Virus record (IMG/VR): IMGVR_UViG_3300009709_000007
Location: 1-46,787 of that record
Length of the DNA stretch: 46,787 bases
DNA from: a virus
Strand: one strand, 5' to 3'
Shown here in pieces: positions 9,294 to 46,787 of this stretch (position 1 is its first letter; each line of letters starts with the position of its first letter). The position numbers were made by a program, and so were the translations under genes. The notes beneath the pieces are model-generated. The model made no database searches. It was not told where the DNA came from and was given only the letters and a program-made list of their open reading frames with translations.

Positions 9294-9325
9294 AGGCCCG
9301 GATCATTCCGGGCCTTTTTCTTTTG
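9294..9325. terminator. Rho-independent terminator after the capsid gene (bidirectional hairpin)
   Basis: Stem aggcccgga, loop tcat, stem tccgggcct, followed by tttttctttt. It overlaps the 3' end of the convergent minus ORF 9303-9524. Confidence 0.85.
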
Positions 9326-9524
9326 CGGTCTTGGCAATCTGGTGCTTCCAGAAGTCGCGCTCGCCGCGAAGCATCTGGCCGACCGGGTTGCTTGCCGGGA
9401 AGCCCTTGATCGTGCTGTTGAGGTTCCGCAACGCGTCTTGCGCGATGTCCACGCCGTACTTCTCCAGTGCCTTGCGGCCCTCGATGATGCCGTTGCAGTA
9501 GTGCTCGCTGGCAGTGCTGGGCAT
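9303..9524 (-). CDS. Hypothetical small protein (single-gene antisense accessory unit)
   Basis: 73-aa ORF with gaggaa RBS and its own promoter at 9554-9582. It ends in the terminator hairpin. Confidence 0.6.
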   Translation of the reverse strand: MPSTASEHYCNGIIEGRKALEKYGVDIAQDALRNLNSTIKGFPASNPVGQMLRGERDFWKHQIAKTAKEKGPE

Positions 9525-9553
9525 GGGCAGTTCCTCAATGGGTTAGTGGGGTC

Positions 9554-9582
9554 ATCTTATCGCTAGGTAATCGCGTTGTCAA
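9554..9582 (-). promoter_or_regulatory. Sigma70-like promoter, conserved-spacer family
   Basis: The reverse complement reads gtgTTGACAacgcGATTACCTAGCGATAAGAT (17-nt spacer). Confidence 0.75.
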
Positions 9583-9652
9583 CACTTGAGGCGCGTTGCC
9601 GTGCAGTCAGTGTGAGGCTGCTAAAACCGTGCGGTAACGAATGGAGCCACGC

Positions 9653-10117
9653 ATGACCACGAACGTTCAATACGACCTGACCGCAACCAATCTCGCACCT
9701 GGCTCCGCGCCGCAATCGGTCCTTCTGACCGCCGTGGTCAATCCGGACGGTTCGGCTATCAGTGCCGGCGCGAGCGGTGGATCGTCAGGTGCTACGTCTT
9801 TCGCCAGTGAGTTCGTGACTTCGGATACACCCGTGGACATCAAGGTGCCCGCGGGCGCCATGAGTGTCCTAAAGTCCTTGCGGGCTACCGCTTACGATCC
9901 ACAAGCCGCTCAAGCAGGGACTGGCGTACTCCACTTGATCATCGACAGCGTGGTCTATTCGTTACCTTACGCGGCGGCCAGTGCGTCCACCAACAACGTG
10001 TTCGAGCTGGCTTACCTCGAAAACCTCAACATGCCGATCACCGGGAACGCGATCCAAGCTCAGCTAGGGAGTGCGCTAACTGGCGGCGGGATCGTTGTCA
10101 CCGCGACATTTGCTTAA
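9653..10117 (+). CDS. Hypothetical protein (possible virion protein)
   Basis: ATG 9653 is preceded by ggag. The plus-strand ORF lies between the capsid gene and the minus cassette, and its composition is Ala/Ser/Gly/Thr-rich. Confidence 0.5.
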   Translation: MTTNVQYDLTATNLAPGSAPQSVLLTAVVNPDGSAISAGASGGSSGATSFASEFVTSDTPVDIKVPAGAMSVLKSLRATAYDPQAAQAGTGVLHLIIDSVVYSLPYAAASASTNNVFELAYLENLNMPITGNAIQAQLGSALTGGGIVVTATFA

Positions 10118-10476
10118 CGCGGGTGCCACCAGGTTTCCGAACCATGCTGCGCCATGCAGTTTTCAAAGGCGCCTTGGGCAATCTGATCAGGCGTGGACAT
10201 CATCCATCCACCGTAGTGGTAGACCATGGTGAGGTTCACTTCGTTGTCCGCTGCGAGACGCGGATTAGTGGTGTTGGCCGGACCCCGCCGAAGAATGGTC
10301 AGCAGCGCTTGTTCTTTGAACCCATCGTCGCGGTAACCGGCTAGCGTCCCCGCCACGCCAGCAACACCGACGCAGTATTCAAAGAGCGGGCGAGTGTACG
10401 CAGTGTTTTCGTAGCGTTCGGCCATCACGGGCGCCGCGATCAGCACGAGCAGTGCAGTAGCTAGTAATCGTTTCAT
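10114..10476 (-). CDS. Secreted/periplasmic hypothetical protein
   Basis: The start MKRLLATALLVLIAAPVMA looks like a Sec signal peptide. ggag RBS is present. I trimmed the track start 10500 to 10476. Confidence 0.6.
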   Translation of the reverse strand: MKRLLATALLVLIAAPVMAERYENTAYTRPLFEYCVGVAGVAGTLAGYRDDGFKEQALLTILRRGPANTTNPRLAADNEVNLTMVYHYGGWMMSTPDQIAQGAFENCMAQHGSETWWHPR

Positions 10477-10631
10477 ACTCCGTCCCTCGCTTTGAGCCAA
10501 CCCTTGATGAAAGCCCTACGCTCGTCCGAACCGAGCGGCCATTTCAACGCTAAGCAATCAGCTACCAGGGGGGCGTCGCCCGAGCGTAACCCACAACTCT
10601 AGGTAGCTATTGTAACCCTGTTCTTCCGGGG

Positions 10632-11462
10632 TCATGACTTACCTCCGGCGCGCTCGAGTGCGGCAAAAAGGGCATCGCGCTCGCTACACCACGCCGCCGA
10701 CCGCGCCGACTCCGCCGCCGCCGACCGCGCCGACCACGCCGACCACGCCGCCGACCGCGCCGCCGACCACGCCGACCGCGCCGCCGACCGCGCCGCCGAC
10801 CGCGCCGACGCCGCCGACGCCGCCGCCGACCACGCCGCCGCCGACTCCGCCGCCGACTCCGCCGCCGACTCCGCCGCCGCCGACCACGCCGACCGCGCCG
10901 CCGACCGCGCCGCCGACCGCGCCGCCGACCGCGCCGCCGACAATTCGCATGTGTTGCCACCGGCGGCGGCCTCGTGTGCGCGGCGACCGACACCCAGCGC
11001 GGCGATAACGCCTTCGATTGCCTCATGCACGCCGTGGTCATGCTTCTTTTTCAGGAGCTCACTCAACGTGCCGAACTGCCGGTCAATACGATCAATGGCG
11101 ATCCAGTGCTGGACAGGCTCAAGATCAGCTCCCACCGGGATCCGCTTAGCCAGGTCAACATGGAAGTTGGCCCTGAGCTCCTGCGGAAGACCTTCGAACA
11201 TCGAATCCTGAAGGCGGATCAACCAGACGGGGAGTCCACGCGCTCCTGCCACCACCTCGTGCCAGTTGGCACCCGTGGTCGGTTCGATCTCGTGAGCAAA
11301 GCAGCCAACCGAGCAGCCCCGGAACTGGCCGGCGTCTACGTCACCGAACGTGCCGGCGACCAACATGTCAGCAGCAGCGTGCCGCTCGGCCTGGGCAACG
11401 TGAGTCGCCTTCAGCGCGGCATCGCCGAAGAAAGACAAATGGGACTTATTGGTAGTGGTCAT
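10632..11462 (-). CDS. Hypothetical protein: ~170-aa N-terminal domain plus ~85 residues of SAAX tetrapeptide repeats
   Basis: This is the only frame with a coherent non-repeat N-terminus, an RBS (aggaaa) and its own promoter (11491-11519). The repeat region reads SAARSAARSAARSAARSAWSAAAESAAESAAESAAAWSAA... Confidence 0.7.
   Translation of the reverse strand: MTTTNKSHLSFFGDAALKATHVAQAERHAAADMLVAGTFGDVDAGQFRGCSVGCFAHEIEPTTGANWHEVVAGARGLPVWLIRLQDSMFEGLPQELRANFHVDLAKRIPVGADLEPVQHWIAIDRIDRQFGTLSELLKKKHDHGVHEAIEGVIAALGVGRRAHEAAAGGNTCELSAARSAARSAARSAARSAWSAAAESAAESAAESAAAWSAAASAASARSAARSAARSAWSAARSAAWSAWSARSAAAESARSAAWCSERDALFAALERAGGKS
10684..10945. repeat. Tandem 12-bp (some 9-bp) GC-rich coding repeats
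   Basis: Units such as gccgccgaccgc repeat about 22 times. On the coding strand each unit is tcggcggcgcgg, which encodes SAAR. The track shows ORFs in four frames across the region because the repeats lack stop codons. Confidence 0.9.
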
Positions 11463-11490
11463 GGGGTTTCCTGTCTGTGAGTGTGTGACT

Positions 11491-11519
11491 ACTTTATCGA
11501 AAGGTAACTGCTATGTCAA
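11491..11519 (-). promoter_or_regulatory. Sigma70-like promoter, conserved-spacer family (drives the SAAX-repeat gene)
   Basis: The reverse complement reads gtgTTGACAtagcAGTTACCTTTCGATAAAGT (17-nt spacer). Confidence 0.7.
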
Positions 11520-11522
11520 CAC

Positions 11523-11696
11523 TTATTTCGTGGTCGGGACGCAGCGCACAAATACTGGACCCTCCTGGCGCAGTTCACGTGTGCCCAACGCGGCGATCCG
11601 GCACGCAGTAGGGCTAGCGTACAGCTTGGCGACGTAGTTCACGCACTGCATCGACTGCATGCTGCACAGGGTGAAGACAAGCGCGGTCAGGTTCAT
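11523..11696 (-). CDS. Hypothetical small protein
   Basis: 57 aa. Its ATG overlaps the upstream stop as ATGA (11693-11696). Confidence 0.45.
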   Translation of the reverse strand: MNLTALVFTLCSMQSMQCVNYVAKLYASPTACRIAALGTRELRQEGPVFVRCVPTTK

Positions 11697-11917
11697 GAAC
11701 CGTCTCCAGGCAGCGCGGTCACCAACGACCGCACGTAGCAATGGGTGATGTAGCGCGAGCCGTCCGAGTGTTGCCACACGCGGCACCAGCGATTGGCGTA
11801 GTAGATCATGAAACGCGTCGGGAGCCGGATGGCGCCATGCATGGACTTGGACTGCGGAACGGGCGTCGTACGTACGCGCACGGTGCGCGTCTCGTCTTTC
11901 AGGTGCAGAAGGGCCAT
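11693..11917 (-). CDS. Hypothetical small protein
   Basis: 74 aa (MALLHLKDETRTV...). ATGA overlap with the upstream gene at 11914-11917... precisely, the ATG occupies 11915-11917 and the upstream TGA occupies 11917-11919. Confidence 0.5.
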   Translation of the reverse strand: MALLHLKDETRTVRVRTTPVPQSKSMHGAIRLPTRFMIYYANRWCRVWQHSDGSRYITHCYVRSLVTALPGDGS

Positions 11918-12177
11918 CACTCCCCCTGCCGCAGGTGCATGCGCGCCTGCTTCAGTCGGCCGGCGCGGCAATCCAGGTCCACGAGCCGCTTGACGAGATT
12001 GTCGTAGATAGCGGCTAGCTGCGTCTCGGCCGCGGTGATCGCGTCGCTAGCCTTCGCATAGACATCGGCCTTCAGGACCTTGCGCCGCCCCGTGAGCCAG
12101 TAGTCGGGCGCATCCAGAGCCGGCCGCAGGTTCACCGCTTGGACGCGTAGGGAGGGTGTCACGATGTAGCCCTTCAT
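11917..12177 (-). CDS. Hypothetical small protein
   Basis: 86 aa (MKGYIVTPSLRV...). ATGA overlap with the upstream gene at 12174-12177. Confidence 0.55.
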   Translation of the reverse strand: MKGYIVTPSLRVQAVNLRPALDAPDYWLTGRRKVLKADVYAKASDAITAAETQLAAIYDNLVKRLVDLDCRAGRLKQARMHLRQGE

Positions 12178-12353
12178 GCCCAAGTATCCAGACTAGGTGT
12201 CAGCGGTTTGACCTCAAGGATGACGACGTAGTGGCCTTCGCCGCGGTCGTGCTCGCGAGCCAGTCCCGCGATACGGTCGGACAGCAGGTCCGTCGTGAGG
12301 CAGTCATCGGTGAATTGCACGCCGTTGATGGTATAGGTGAGGTTGTAGAACAT
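12174..12353 (-). CDS. Hypothetical small protein
   Basis: Hand-translated 59-aa ORF, below the track cutoff: MFYNLTYTINGVQFTDDCLTTDLLSDRIAGLAREHDRGEGHYVVILEVKPLTPSLDTWA. It starts 2 nt after the upstream stop. Confidence 0.5.
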   Translation of the reverse strand: MFYNLTYTINGVQFTDDCLTTDLLSDRIAGLAREHDRGEGHYVVILEVKPLTPSLDTWA

Positions 12354-12355
12354 GG

Positions 12356-12550
12356 TCAGACCTCCAGTCCAGTGATCAAGCCCACTACAAACTGATCGAG
12401 TTCAAGGCGCGCCGCCATCAATTCGGCTGCAATTGCTTGAGCCTCACCGGGCGGCTGCGCGCCGCTCCATGCTTCGTCCGCGGCAGCTTCGATGAGTCGA
12501 TTTCTTAGCATGTTGTACTTCGCGGCCTTATCCTGATTCGATGTGTTCAT
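12356..12550 (-). CDS. Hypothetical small protein, first gene of accessory cassette 2
   Basis: 64-aa ORF downstream of the promoter at 12583-12611. Confidence 0.55.
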   Translation of the reverse strand: MNTSNQDKAAKYNMLRNRLIEAAADEAWSGAQPPGEAQAIAAELMAARLELDQFVVGLITGLEV

Positions 12551-12582
12551 TGTGGGGGCGTCTAGCAGGTGAGTGTGGGCGT

Positions 12583-12611
12583 AGCTTACCGCTAGGTAAT
12601 CGGCATGTCAA
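12583..12611 (-). promoter_or_regulatory. Sigma70-like promoter, conserved-spacer family (drives cassette 2)
   Basis: The reverse complement reads gtgTTGACAtgccGATTACCTAGCGGTAAGCT. It has a 17-nt spacer and a perfect TTACC-tagc-GGTAA dyad. Confidence 0.75.
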
Positions 12612-12678
12612 CACCCCTAGAGCGCGGCATCGTGATATTCTCCCACTACATCAACCTTTAGCCCTTTGGAGCACCCTC

Positions 12679-25119: not shown

Positions 25120-25355
25120 GCGTGGGTGTCTCCGGCGGTGGGTGGGCGGATCATCTCGGCGGCGTCGTGGCGATGGTCGCCGCGGGACAGGTAGTAGCCG
25201 TGGGCGGCCAGCAGCAGGAAGGCGATCAGCTTGCGGTGCTCGTGCAGGGCCTGGTCGGCGCGATTGGCGAAGTGCCAGGCCCGGCGAAGGTCCGCGACAG
25301 CCTGCTGGTCGATCCAGGAGGCAAGGCCGTGCCGCAACGTGGTGATCGTCTTCAT
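25116..25355 (-). CDS. Hypothetical protein, candidate leaderless gene
   Basis: ATG 25355 (MKTITTL) lies 6 nt downstream of the -10 of promoter 25362-25390. No Shine-Dalgarno is present. Confidence 0.5.
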   Translation of the reverse strand: MKTITTLRHGLASWIDQQAVADLRRAWHFANRADQALHEHRKLIAFLLLAAHGYYLSRGDHRHDAAEMIRPPTAGDTHA

Positions 25356-25361
25356 GGGCAA

Positions 25362-25390
25362 AGGATAGTCCTAGGTAACCGGGATGTCAA
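25362..25390 (-). promoter_or_regulatory. Sigma70-like promoter, conserved-spacer family (internal to the replication module)
   Basis: The reverse complement reads gtgTTGACAtcccGGTTACCTAGGACTATCCT (17-nt spacer), then ttgccc, then ATG. Confidence 0.7.
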
Positions 25391-25440
25391 CACTTAGCGC
25401 GAACGGATCGCACCGCCGCGCCGAGTGTAGACGAACGCCC

Positions 25441-29504: not shown

Positions 29505-29761
29505 CGTCTCGTCTATCGTGAACTTCCATCTCATCACCATCTTGACCAAATCTTTAGGAAAGACAGAGGAACAGAGGATATTTTCTACTTTCTTATATTT
29601 AATATATTTCTATAAATAGTAGTGTAGGGATAGATATTTATATATATACAGGTGTTTTCGCATATAGAGAAAAGTTTGAAGAATCGTCATCTGTCCTCTG
29701 TTCGTCTGTTCGTCTGTTACATTTGAAACTAATTCAAACACGCGTTTGAGACCAAAGTAGT
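29505..29761. repeat. AT-rich junction element, copy 1 (~257 bp, ~32% GC by hand count)
   Basis: Aligns without gaps to 46531-46785. Positions 29540-29761 are identical to 46566-46785 except for one extra TA. It contains inverted 8-mer iterons, a (TA)5 run and a TTTGAA-N5-TTCAAA dyad. Confidence 0.95.
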
Positions 29762-29789
29762 AGCTTCTGACGCCCGGCACGGATACGAT
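29761..29789 (+). promoter_or_regulatory. Candidate rightward promoter of module 3: weak -35 tagctt, 17-nt spacer, -10 TACGAT ending 6 nt before ATG 29796
   Basis: Same geometry as 118-146. No Shine-Dalgarno precedes the ATG. Confidence 0.3.
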
Positions 29790-33552: not shown

Positions 33553-35355
33553 ATGGCTAATGAGAACGTTGTCGATGAACTGGTAGTTAAGCTTCGTCTT
33601 GATGCGGAATCCTATGAGGACGCGCAGGCCGAAGTAGATGCGCGCGCGGCTGGCACCGAGAAAAAAGAGAAGAACAAGGAGGCCCAGCGCAAGACGCGCG
33701 AACGTGACCAGTCCTCGCGCATGAAAGGTCTCACATCGACAGCCAAAAGCTTAGGCGTAGCGCTCGCTGCGGTTGCCGGGTTCGTCGTCGCTGTAGGCGC
33801 GGCCGTGGTCGGCTCGTTGACGGGGCTGAACGCGTTCGAGGTGGGCCTGCGCCGTCAAGGCGTGGCTACCGGGCTGTCCAACCGCGAGATGCAGGCCTGG
33901 GGCTCGACAGCACGCCGACTGGGCGCAGACGCCGACGCAGGCGCCTCGGCGATCGCGGACTTGGCCCGCGAACAGAAGAACTTCAACCTGACGGGCGACG
34001 CACCGACCATGCAGGCGCTCGCGCGCATTGGTGTGAACGTCGGTCCGAACGTGCCGCTGCAAGACATGCTCGCCCAGGCACAGCAGACCTACCGTAACGC
34101 ACCTACGGCACAGAAGCAGCAGATCGAATCGGTTCTATCGACATCTGGCGCCAGTGCGGACCTGATCGTCATGATCAAGTCCGAGACCGACGTGCGCGAG
34201 GCATTTAACAAGTCGCTCCAGCAGGCCACTGCGGAGAACACCAAGGCGCTGTCTGAGTTTAACGACGCGGTGGCGTCCGCCAAGGACAACGCGATCAGCA
34301 TCGCAAACACAATGGCCGGCATCCTTGAGCCAGGGATAAAGAGCGCTGCGGCGTGGTTGAATACCTTTGCCGTTGATGCCCAACGCTTTGGGGAACGTGT
34401 CACTGCCGCAGGCGGCGGCATAGACGGCTTCATGAAGGTGCTCAACGAGGAATCGCCCACCGTCGCGAAGTCGCTTCGCGGGCTAGCCGATGTCATCGAC
34501 GTCATTATCTTCGGATTCAAGAAGATAGGCGAAGTTATTGACGAGATACGGGGTAAGGGAGGCTGGGGGGATCGTTTCAACCAGCGGGTACAGACAGAAG
34601 TCAACAAGACGAGCCACAGTCCTTTTTGGGGACTCGTTGCCTCAGGCCAGAACATTGGCAAGTCGATCGTCAGCAAAGTGTCCGGCATTTGGGGCGAGAC
34701 CGTAGACAACGCCCACGCCGATGGTATCGATGTCCTGAAGGCATCGCCGCCTAGTCCGGCTGCGGGCACGTCCACAGGCACGTCCACAGGCACGCCCGCG
34801 GGCGATATGCAACAGGCTGTCATGGGCCAGTTGATCAGCAAATATGGGCTCTCCGTGCCCGATGCCGCCGCCCTCACCGCCAACCTGCAAGCCGAGTCAG
34901 GGCTGCGTCCGAATGCCTACAACTCGGCCGGAGGCGGTCAGGGGGCGCGAGGCATCGCCCAATGGCGCGGCGAGCGCATCGATGCGTTCCGCAAGCGCTA
35001 TGGTATGAACCCGGATGCTGCCACGCTCGACCAGCAGATCGAGTTCATGATGACCGACCCCTACGAACGCGCACTGCTCGCTCGCGCCTTTGCAAGTGCC
35101 GGTCCTGGCGCCTCGGCCGGCGAGCGCGGGGTGGCCGTGTCACGCACCTACGAGGCTCACGGCGTACTGGCGGAGGACAACCTGCGCGGCTACGCTGCGG
35201 CCAAGTTGGCAGCGCAGTACGATACGAATGCAGGCAGCACGCCGCCTGTACAGATATCTGGACCGGTAACGGTGATCGCTAACAACCCGCAGGAATTGGC
35301 GACGAATATTCAGCGGGTCAGCAACGTACAAAATCAGAACTCGGCGGTTCGGTAA
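33553..35355 (+). CDS. Tail tape measure protein with C-terminal lysozyme-like (tail lysozyme) domain
   Basis: 600 aa. It has a charged coiled N-terminus, a hydrophobic segment LGVALAAVAGFVVAVGAAVVG and Ala-rich helices. C-terminal LQAESGLRPNAYNSAGGGQGARGIAQWRGERIDAFRKRYG is glycosidase-like. Confidence 0.8.
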   Translation: MANENVVDELVVKLRLDAESYEDAQAEVDARAAGTEKKEKNKEAQRKTRERDQSSRMKGLTSTAKSLGVALAAVAGFVVAVGAAVVGSLTGLNAFEVGLRRQGVATGLSNREMQAWGSTARRLGADADAGASAIADLAREQKNFNLTGDAPTMQALARIGVNVGPNVPLQDMLAQAQQTYRNAPTAQKQQIESVLSTSGASADLIVMIKSETDVREAFNKSLQQATAENTKALSEFNDAVASAKDNAISIANTMAGILEPGIKSAAAWLNTFAVDAQRFGERVTAAGGGIDGFMKVLNEESPTVAKSLRGLADVIDVIIFGFKKIGEVIDEIRGKGGWGDRFNQRVQTEVNKTSHSPFWGLVASGQNIGKSIVSKVSGIWGETVDNAHADGIDVLKASPPSPAAGTSTGTSTGTPAGDMQQAVMGQLISKYGLSVPDAAALTANLQAESGLRPNAYNSAGGGQGARGIAQWRGERIDAFRKRYGMNPDAATLDQQIEFMMTDPYERALLARAFASAGPGASAGERGVAVSRTYEAHGVLAEDNLRGYAAAKLAAQYDTNAGSTPPVQISGPVTVIANNPQELATNIQRVSNVQNQNSAVR

Positions 35356-46512: not shown

Positions 46513-46541
46513 AGTGTACTCGTTCCTTATCGTCTCGTCAA
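46513..46541 (-). promoter_or_regulatory. Sigma70-like leftward promoter of module 4
   Basis: The reverse complement reads TTGACG-agacgataaggaacgag(17)-TACACT. The -35 lies in the divergent left edge of the AT-rich element. Confidence 0.55.
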
Positions 46542-46785
46542 TCATGAATCGCCATCTTAGCACCTTCTTGACCAAATCTTTAGGAAAGACAGAGGAACAG
46601 AGGATATTTTCTACTTTCTTATATTTAATATATTTCTATAAATAGTAGTGTAGGGATAGATATTTATATATACAGGTGTTTTCGCATATAGAGAAAAGTT
46701 TGAAGAATCGTCATCTGTCCTCTGTTCGTCTGTTCGTCTGTTACATTTGAAACTAATTCAAACACGCGTTTGAGACCAAAGTAGT
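46531..46785. repeat. AT-rich junction element, copy 2 (255 bp; its right half is repeated as bases 1-121)
   Basis: Gap-free alignment to 29505-29761 at offset 17026, changing to 17024 after a (TA)4 versus (TA)5 difference. The last ~220 bp are otherwise identical. Confidence 0.95.
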
Positions 46786-46787
46786 GA

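Follow-up and report, generated by a model that had tools for sequence, protein, structure and literature searches.

Stable α-helices can be built on a largely alanine background, as in (EAAAK)n-type peptides and linkers and in ER/K single α-helix domains, and Glu–Arg pairs spaced i to i+3/4 can stabilize such helices. In ER/K domains, E and R/K make up well over half of the residues and alternate in blocks. Antiparallel arrangements are also known, including Alacoil-type packing and the type I antifreeze protein ‘Maxi’, a long Ala-rich helical hairpin with an 11-residue period marked by Thr. Among phages, the early-left (PL-type) operons of lambdoid genomes encode accessory proteins such as Gam, Abc, Ral, Lar, cIII and Kil. 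Here we describe a gene on the minus strand (10632–11462) of IMG/VR virus record IMGVR_UViG_3300009709_000007, whose complete 46,787-nucleotide stretch we call the window. It encodes a protein with a tandem array of Ser/Ala units, generically SAAX with X variable. As judged from profile comparisons, this protein belongs to a large unannotated phage and prophage family that combines an N-terminal domain (N-domain) bearing a G-C-S-V-G-C motif, an SAAX array and a terminal helix. The repeat in this family advances by one unit per α-helical turn, with W, E and R about equally frequent at X. We favor an explanation, to which we give an even chance when taken as a whole, in which the product is an early accessory protein whose repeat-tuned W/E/R hairpin would serve as a variable host-binding surface.

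The repeat rule emerges from 577 strict units in 52 proteins, each with at least six contiguous strict units. Most units have three (215) or four (349) residues, a ratio of ~38:62, with only four units of two residues and nine of five. The mean is 3.63 residues, the per-protein median is 3.645 (interquartile range 3.50–3.72) and the peak Fourier period of the bulky residues has a median of 3.73. The X residues are W (164), E (158) and R (155), with D and Y as minor choices. Because a mean of 3.63 residues places one unit on each α-helical turn, the X residues would line up as a nearly straight stripe on one face of the helix. The initial annotation of the window, made from the sequence alone, had described a strict period of four that would place R, W and E on a slowly winding stripe. 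The strict period does not survive, as units of three, four and five residues are mixed, and of the proposed helix the helical prediction stands but the winding does not. The order of W, E and R along the arrays follows no clear E-to-R rule, and only a weak depletion of identical neighbors is seen (107 identical adjacent X residues observed vs 129 expected). In the window protein, the array comprises 22 units, in agreement with the earlier count of about 22; 12 of these have four residues, seven have three and three have five, for a mean of 3.82. The parts of the gene are listed here with their window coordinates and the evidence for each.

10632–11462, minus strand: complete coding sequence, 276 aa plus stop (open reading frame (ORF) list)
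10941–11462, minus strand: N-terminal domain, residues 1–174, conserved, non-repetitive and predicted to be all-α (alignments A3/A5, profile search, AlphaFold2)
10689–10940, minus strand: array of 22 S-A(1–3)-X units, residues 175–258, 84 aa (repeat and codon analysis, AlphaFold2)
10632–10688, minus strand: conserved C-terminal helix CSERDALFAALERAGGKS (18 aa) and stop (alignments A1/A2, predicted local distance difference test (pLDDT) scores)
11467–11472, minus strand: Shine–Dalgarno-like AGGAAA, 4 nt upstream of the ATG at 11462 (read from the sequence)
11483–11522, minus strand: 40-nt promoter element, GTGTTGACA...TTACCT...TAAAGT (promoter scan and direct-repeat family D6)

In the AlphaFold2 model of the window protein, helices span residues 171–214 and 221–274, and the predicted turn between them falls on SAAA-SAA (residues 212–218), the only two units without a bulky X, at the center of the array. 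The pLDDT is 43–70 in the middle of the array, 97 for residues 261–270 of the terminal helix and mostly 84–97 in the N-domain, with a dip to 56/47 at residues 31–50. We infer from this model that the terminal helix folds back onto the N-domain and thereby anchors both ends of the array, which is probably a long Ala-packed antiparallel helical hairpin rather than the free C-terminal repeat tail envisaged initially. A family member with only two units in a 7-aa array (P0007) gives a compact AlphaFold2 model with the same terminal helix.

This predicted architecture has parallels with the Ala-based helices described above. Like (EAAAK)n peptides and ER/K domains, the arrays place charged residues one turn apart on an Ala-rich background, with one unit per turn. 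In contrast to those helices, about one-third of the X residues in the family are Trp, Ser opens every unit and the prediction is an anchored hairpin, not a free rod. Charge density is also far lower than in ER/K domains; the window array has just 10 R and 4 E in 84 residues (Ala and Ser account for 64), and we therefore rejected its assignment as a single α-helix domain of this type. The predicted long, mostly Ala antiparallel hairpin, which could pack very closely, would resemble Alacoils and ‘Maxi’. However, ‘Maxi’ has an 11-residue Thr period, no structure in the Protein Data Bank (PDB) matched the window family below E = 0.7 in Foldseek searches and a phage protein of the cytoplasm would not plausibly bind ice.

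The DNA that encodes the array is a tandem repeat, as the initial annotation had stated, but not the nearly pure 12-bp repeat described there, since units of 9, 12 and 15 bp are mixed. Tandem Repeats Finder places the repeat at 10688–10941 (period 12, 22.2 copies, 78% matches, 7% indels), and it is the only high-scoring tandem repeat in the window. The longest perfect period-12 tract is 54 bp (10887–10940), and TCGGCGGCGNGG occurs nine times, always within the array, compared with 0.17 occurrences expected from shuffled sequences. Codon use in the array is 100% homogeneous (TCG 22/22, GCG 42/42, CGG 10/10, TGG 6/6, GAG 4/4), whereas the main Ala codon of the same gene outside the array is GCC. 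As single-stranded DNA, the array has a computed folding energy of –98.9 kcal/mol (z = –3.8), a strong fold that is consistent with slipped-strand intermediates. Because all units are multiples of 3 bp, slippage would alter the length of the array and not its frame. For the same reason, a phase-variable on/off contingency switch was rejected, as gain or loss of 9-, 12- or 15-bp units inside the coding sequence leaves the frame unchanged. A diversity-generating retroelement target was also rejected; a direct-repeat search revealed no second template, with array-like copies found only within 10647–10969 plus two chance 26-mers (77% identity, family D2), although a reverse transcriptase was not searched for.

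The ORF at 10632–11462 and its translation, including GCSVGCFAHE and the tail, match the originally quoted sequence exactly. All six frames are open across the array, which would also allow it to be non-coding or translated in another frame (RRRG/GGAV on the minus strand, PPTA on the plus strand), an outcome that the initial annotation had named as grounds for refuting its reading. We give this alternative next to no chance. About 200 relatives hold the N-domain, array and C-terminal helix in a single frame; in every intact relative, the N-domain and terminal helix are in frame with each other whatever the length of the array, and indels are always multiples of three. The annotated genes of Xanthomonas phages NEB7, XapPhi5 and KPhi1, for example, run in frame through SAAX arrays of other lengths to a W-I-E-E-R-D/A-A-L-F tail. 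Moreover, the amino-acid motif is kept with different codons, and GC content at the three codon positions of the N-domain (GC1/GC2/GC3 = 0.68/0.45/0.71) fits the SAAX frame as coding. Because the homologs are colinear over their full length and the composition of the N-domain fits, the SAAX frame is, on this comparative evidence, the coding frame, and the in-frame homologs effectively exclude a non-coding or alternatively read repeat.

The gene also has its own promoter belonging to a repeated family, as previously noted. This σ70-type promoter on the minus strand consists of TTGACA (–35, from 11519), a 17-nt spacer and TAAAGT (–10, to 11491), with 10 of 12 consensus matches in the promoter scan. 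It lies in a 40-nt element (direct-repeat family D6) present four times on the minus strand of the window, at 9546–9585, 11483–11522, 12575–12614 and 25354–25393, with the shared pattern GTGTTGACA-N-TTACCT-N-TAAAGT/TAAGAT. Three of the four copies sit in and drive the small-gene island, 9303–12550, that contains the gene.

A profile of the N-domain alone, a search suggested in the initial annotation, revealed a large unannotated family, retrieving 2,699 cluster representatives (50% identity) at E ≤ 1e-3 and 1,176 at E ≤ 1e-10 from a search space of 1.84 billion representatives. Members are mostly 200–290 aa in length. Metagenomes and genomes of Luteibacter, Lysobacter, Xanthomonas and Vulcaniibacterium supplied 26 database relatives that are 37–85% identical to the window protein (E from 2e-88 to 4e-29) and show the three-part plan. 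With the N-terminal 170 aa as query, tblastn found matches of ~61% identity in 13 records of Xanthomonas phages (Kantovirinae and relatives). These records, from 11 distinct phages, are the only ones with the family among 50,697 GenBank phage records, even when divergent members are used as queries. The remaining members are prophages and uncultivated phage contigs, with organism labels that include alphaproteobacterial, gammaproteobacterial, actinobacterial and Gemmatimonadaceae assemblies, and the source annotation is ‘hypothetical protein’ in every case. Across 33 diverse members (alignment A5), H28, C50, C54, H68, W80, D86, F89, P109 and G111 are invariant, and the window protein, the first sequence of that alignment, carries all nine. 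The H28/C50/C54/H68 set suggests a possible metal site in the N-domain. In the terminal helix, E261, R262, L265 and L269 are invariant within the clade (alignments A1/A2). In a scan of 177 sequences (174 database relatives plus the window protein, NEB7 and KPhi1), the N-domain and the terminal helix are separated by an Ala/Ser-rich array of 30 aa or more in 98 cases.

Searches of Pfam, PHROGs, NCBIfam and PADLOC with the window protein, distant members and the 33 N-domains returned no match, only low-complexity noise, and sequence-profile searches of the PDB gave nothing or only Ala-rich noise. Foldseek comparisons with the PDB, using the full model and that of a short-array relative (overall pLDDT 79 and 86), reached a best E of 0.7, and a search of BFVD yielded a single match, to an uncharacterized phage protein, evidently another member of the family. 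Comparison of the locus with phage sequences by Megablast gave no match, and literature searches, by peptide string and for repeats in Kantovirinae or Ala-rich repeats in phages, yielded nothing relevant. In the libraries and literature searched, both the family and its repeat rule thus appear undescribed.

Array length turns over fast between relatives. The window protein has 22 units, P0001 has three and a Luteibacter prophage protein has eight, although their N-domains share 83–85% protein identity (about 75–76% in nucleotides) and their tails are almost identical. Two Lysobacter-type prophages have arrays of 82 and 116 aa, and the family as a whole spans 7 aa (P0007) to about 145 aa (NEB7). 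The changeable copy number proposed in the initial annotation therefore holds between relatives, but the array does not appear hypermutable in the short term, as near-identical isolates have the same array or arrays one codon or unit apart. For example, the array is identical in NEB7, XapPhi4 and XapPhi5 and, separately, in KPhi1, MYK3 and phiXaf18, whereas that of BsXeu269p/3 has one extra Ala codon and that of P0019, a partial X. euvesicatoria sequence, has one SAAE unit fewer. On a 33.8-kb metagenomic phage contig (L006, 5427–7677), three tandem paralogs of the family have N-domains that are 98.4–100% identical in nucleotides and arrays that differ by 81–160 gapped positions. Because some family members have almost no array or a non-repetitive segment in its place, the array is not essential to the fold.

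Within each array the set of Ser and Ala codons is uniform, but it differs between lineages. TCG/GCG arrays occur in the window, in NEB7 and in Lysobacter and Luteibacter prophages; TCC/GCC arrays in L033 (= P0011) and P0224; AGT/GCG arrays in P0195 and P0095, two phage contigs of 35–41% GC; a TCT/GCT array in L006; and a mostly TCA/GCA array in L039. The array of P0216 uses AGC+TCG and GCG+GCA. AGY and TCN Ser codons cannot be interconverted by a single synonymous step. Because the codon sets differ between lineages and include both Ser codon families, the S-A-A-X peptide is probably selected at the protein level. Judged from its codons, each array has been amplified locally and in frame from a few founder units.

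Some records are interrupted or shifted at the array. In P0056, a metagenome member, the SAAX tail gives way to a GGVGG-type sequence that corresponds to the repeat read in its +1 frame, and this frameshift inside the array could be either natural or a sequencing error. The records L009 (XapPhi1, PP391659.1), L037 and L040 (both IMG/VR contigs) end inside the SAAX array. The array evidently breaks assemblies, so that truncation or faulty annotation of homologs is likely.

At about 46.7 kb and 62% GC, the window represents a phage genome that is either complete or circularly overlapped. Its genes include those for a family A DNA polymerase, a DEAD-box helicase, a VapE-type primase, an N6/N4 methylase and a PD-(D/E)XK nuclease, and the helicase gene is a distant relative of its counterparts in Bcep781-like and Kantovirinae phages. 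The minus-strand small-gene island in which the array gene sits is flanked by plus-strand structural blocks. Temperate relatives spanning different bacterial classes carry the gene in the early-left operon, directly or a few small genes downstream of a cI-type repressor and upstream of genes for ERF or another recombinase, YqaJ exonuclease, NinB, SSB, Lar or a methylase. In lytic relatives, it comes after primase or replication genes. All 12 genomic contexts inspected are early regions of phages or prophages, and the niche of the gene is that of early accessory, host-takeover and anti-defense genes. Temperate relatives thus share with the lambdoid PL-type accessory genes a position downstream of the repressor among recombination and anti-restriction genes. 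However, the analogy is positional only, and to our knowledge none of the lambdoid proteins has such a repeat.

The Kantovirinae homologs from Xanthomonas phages, namely KPhi1 K1pha_60 (APQ41939.1), phiXaf18_37, NEB7 WHB31219.1 and those of MYK3, BsXeu269p/3 and XapPhi1–6, have the same order of N-domain (with the ~61% identity noted above), SAAX array and W-x-E-R-D/A-A-L-F tail, and the depositors of phiXaf18 annotated a promoter just upstream of its copy. They differ from the window protein in array length (103 aa in KPhi1 and 145 aa in NEB7, compared with 84 aa), in the presence of Q or D among the X residues and in location, as the gene follows primase/VirE in these phages but lies between structural genes in the window. 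All are uncharacterized.

Downstream of the gene in the window are two tiny ORFs of 25 and 24 aa (10473–10635, minus strand), the first overlapping the stop of the gene (ATGA) and the second overlapping the start of the next gene; a frameshift could have split a single small gene into these two, and no homologs of them were seen downstream of the gene in relatives. The last gene of the same transcription unit (10114–10476, minus strand) encodes a 120-aa protein with a signal-peptide-like N-terminus (MKRLLATALLVLIAAPVMA) and no Pfam match. Elsewhere in the window, positions 1–123 are repeated exactly at 46665–46787, which indicates terminal redundancy or circular overlap. An AT-rich intergenic element of ~260 nt at 46531–46787 has a near-exact third copy at 29505–29763, a 2-nt indel apart. 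The element contains TTGACC, ACAGAGGA twice and TCTGTTCG 2.8 times, with plus-strand gene blocks downstream of both copies. At 34765–34794, within a 600-aa ORF (33553–35355), 2.5 copies of GGCACGTCCACA form a perfect 12-nt tandem repeat.

Similar arrays are found beyond the family. The initial annotation mentioned (S/A)AA[WRE] tracts on uncharacterized bacterial proteins, and a search with an idealized array bore this out, finding SAAW/SAAR/SAAE arrays between unrelated flanks in other small proteins (P0232–P0243). These proteins form at least four other groups, one of which ends in ...PTV..LQ.SAL.L.D.M. One protein, P0237, carries an SAAW/SAAE array and a similar terminal helix (…RLIELLG) and matches Pfam Imm5_like (PF21805, E = 8e-9). 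Imm5 proteins are predicted to confer immunity within polymorphic toxin systems (Zhang et al. 2012, PMC3482391). The window protein could accordingly be imagined as a distant member of the Imm5/Imm5_like superfamily that neutralizes a toxin, such as an abortive-infection or polymorphic-toxin effector. Both are mostly α-helical, and in an hhalign comparison the full-length family profile matches P0237 with a probability of 96.6%. With the array removed, this probability falls to 0.4–0.5%, and nothing similar is found outside the array. Moreover, neither PF21805 nor PF14423 (Imm5) matches the window protein (E ≤ 10), 10 full-length distant members or the 33 N-domains (E ≤ 1 to 10), and the family occurs in phage contexts, none of which is a toxin or polyimmunity locus. 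We therefore rejected homology to Imm5_like, consider an immunity function highly improbable and treat the SAAX array, on these profile comparisons, as a module shared with an Imm5_like protein rather than a sign of family membership.

In the explanation that we favor, the protein would be expressed early from the gene’s own promoter. Its array would fold as an antiparallel helical hairpin, packed through Ala, that extends outward from the N-domain and exposes the W/E/R stripe, and replication slippage or unequal recombination would retune the length and surface of the hairpin by gain or loss of 9-, 12- or 15-bp units. The N-domain, which may bind metal, would act as a constant scaffold or effector, while the hairpin would engage a host target early in infection. 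Taken alone, this binding step, in which a host protein would be bound by the variable surface of the hairpin in counter-defense or host takeover, is the least certain part of the proposal, and we regard it as possible but doubtful. It is suggested because variability concentrates in the hairpin while the N-domain stays constant, because the tandem L006 paralogs differ only in the hairpin and because W and R are typical interface residues.

Several observations weigh against this explanation. The low pLDDT of the middle of the array leaves a hairpin, a single long helix and a partly disordered segment indistinguishable. Near-identical phages from different places or years share the same array, with no sign of rapid variation within populations, and P0026, P0043, P0049 and P0007 have a non-repetitive segment or almost no array at the corresponding position. 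The L006 paralogs, all on one metagenomic contig, could reflect an assembly artifact. Finally, the gene has no conserved downstream partner, its neighbors differing between contexts, and no homology-based or experimental link connects the family to any function.

Other roles for the array deserve comparison with a binding surface. The hairpin could be a rigid spacer, stalk or dimerization rod in which only length and stiffness matter and W/E/R form no specific binding site. Its predicted helicity, the resemblance of an array with one unit per turn and E and R on one face to self-stabilizing Ala-based helices, and the wide range of array lengths (from that of P0007 to that of NEB7) would all suit such an element. 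Nevertheless, a ruler should keep a defined length, yet the closest relatives found have three, eight and 22 units; Trp, at ~29% of X, would be unusual in a solvent-exposed spacer; and in the predicted structure the array is anchored at both ends on one domain, leaving nothing to be spaced apart. We consider a spacer distinctly unlikely, and we judge equally so that the array is a neutral, low-complexity expansion of a slippage-prone GC-rich tract in a tolerant loop, with no function of its own. Neutral expansion would account for the homogeneous codons and perfect 54-bp tract, the strong single-stranded DNA hairpin, the members with little or no array (P0007, P0020 and P0026), the passage of P0056 into the GGV frame and the records that end inside the array (L009, L037 and L040). 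It does not readily explain why S-A-A-[W/E/R] recurs with unrelated codon sets (AGT vs TCG/TCC/TCT, and GCG in genomes of 35–41% GC), why the mean unit fits the helical period and not the 4.0 residues expected from pure 12-bp slippage, why identical neighboring X residues are if anything depleted or why the same type of array appears in several other protein families.

The genomic setting raises a different alternative, in which the protein is a recombination or replication accessory factor, for example, a Gam- or Abc-like inhibitor of the host RecBCD nuclease. In six temperate contexts the gene is upstream of, and in the same operon as, genes for ERF or another recombinase, YqaJ, NinB or SSB or, in L027, only a gene for an Enc34-type single-stranded DNA-binding protein, and the position after primase in lytic relatives points the same way. 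However, four of the temperate contexts are related Xanthomonadales prophages and not independent, and in the window the gene sits in a separate island far from the polymerase, helicase and nuclease genes. Furthermore, the array carries a net positive charge in some relatives and a net negative one in others, evidence against DNA binding or DNA mimicry, and searches by sequence and fold found no resemblance to a solved structure. We thus regard this role as very unlikely, if somewhat less so than toxin neutralization by an Imm5-like protein.

More broadly, the family could represent an unrecognized class of phage counter-defense or host-takeover proteins built on a minimal-alphabet Ser/Ala hairpin with one W, E or R per turn, rebuilt in each lineage by amplification and loss of 9/12-bp units and reused as a module in other small proteins, Imm5_like included. 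This larger claim is speculative and, in our estimation, unlikely to hold in full. If true, it would describe a repeat-based generation of binding diversity that is distinct from diversity-generating retroelements and from arms races driven by point mutation. Should the hairpin prove to be a variable binding surface, the 2,699 or more clusters would constitute a large unexplored set of early phage proteins, and turnover of the repeat would provide a simple mechanism for fast retuning of protein surfaces. Independent of function, the repeat rule stands, with each helical turn taking one unit and W, E and R used equally, and the use of different codons for the same peptide in each lineage illustrates both convergence at the protein level and concerted evolution of a coding repeat.

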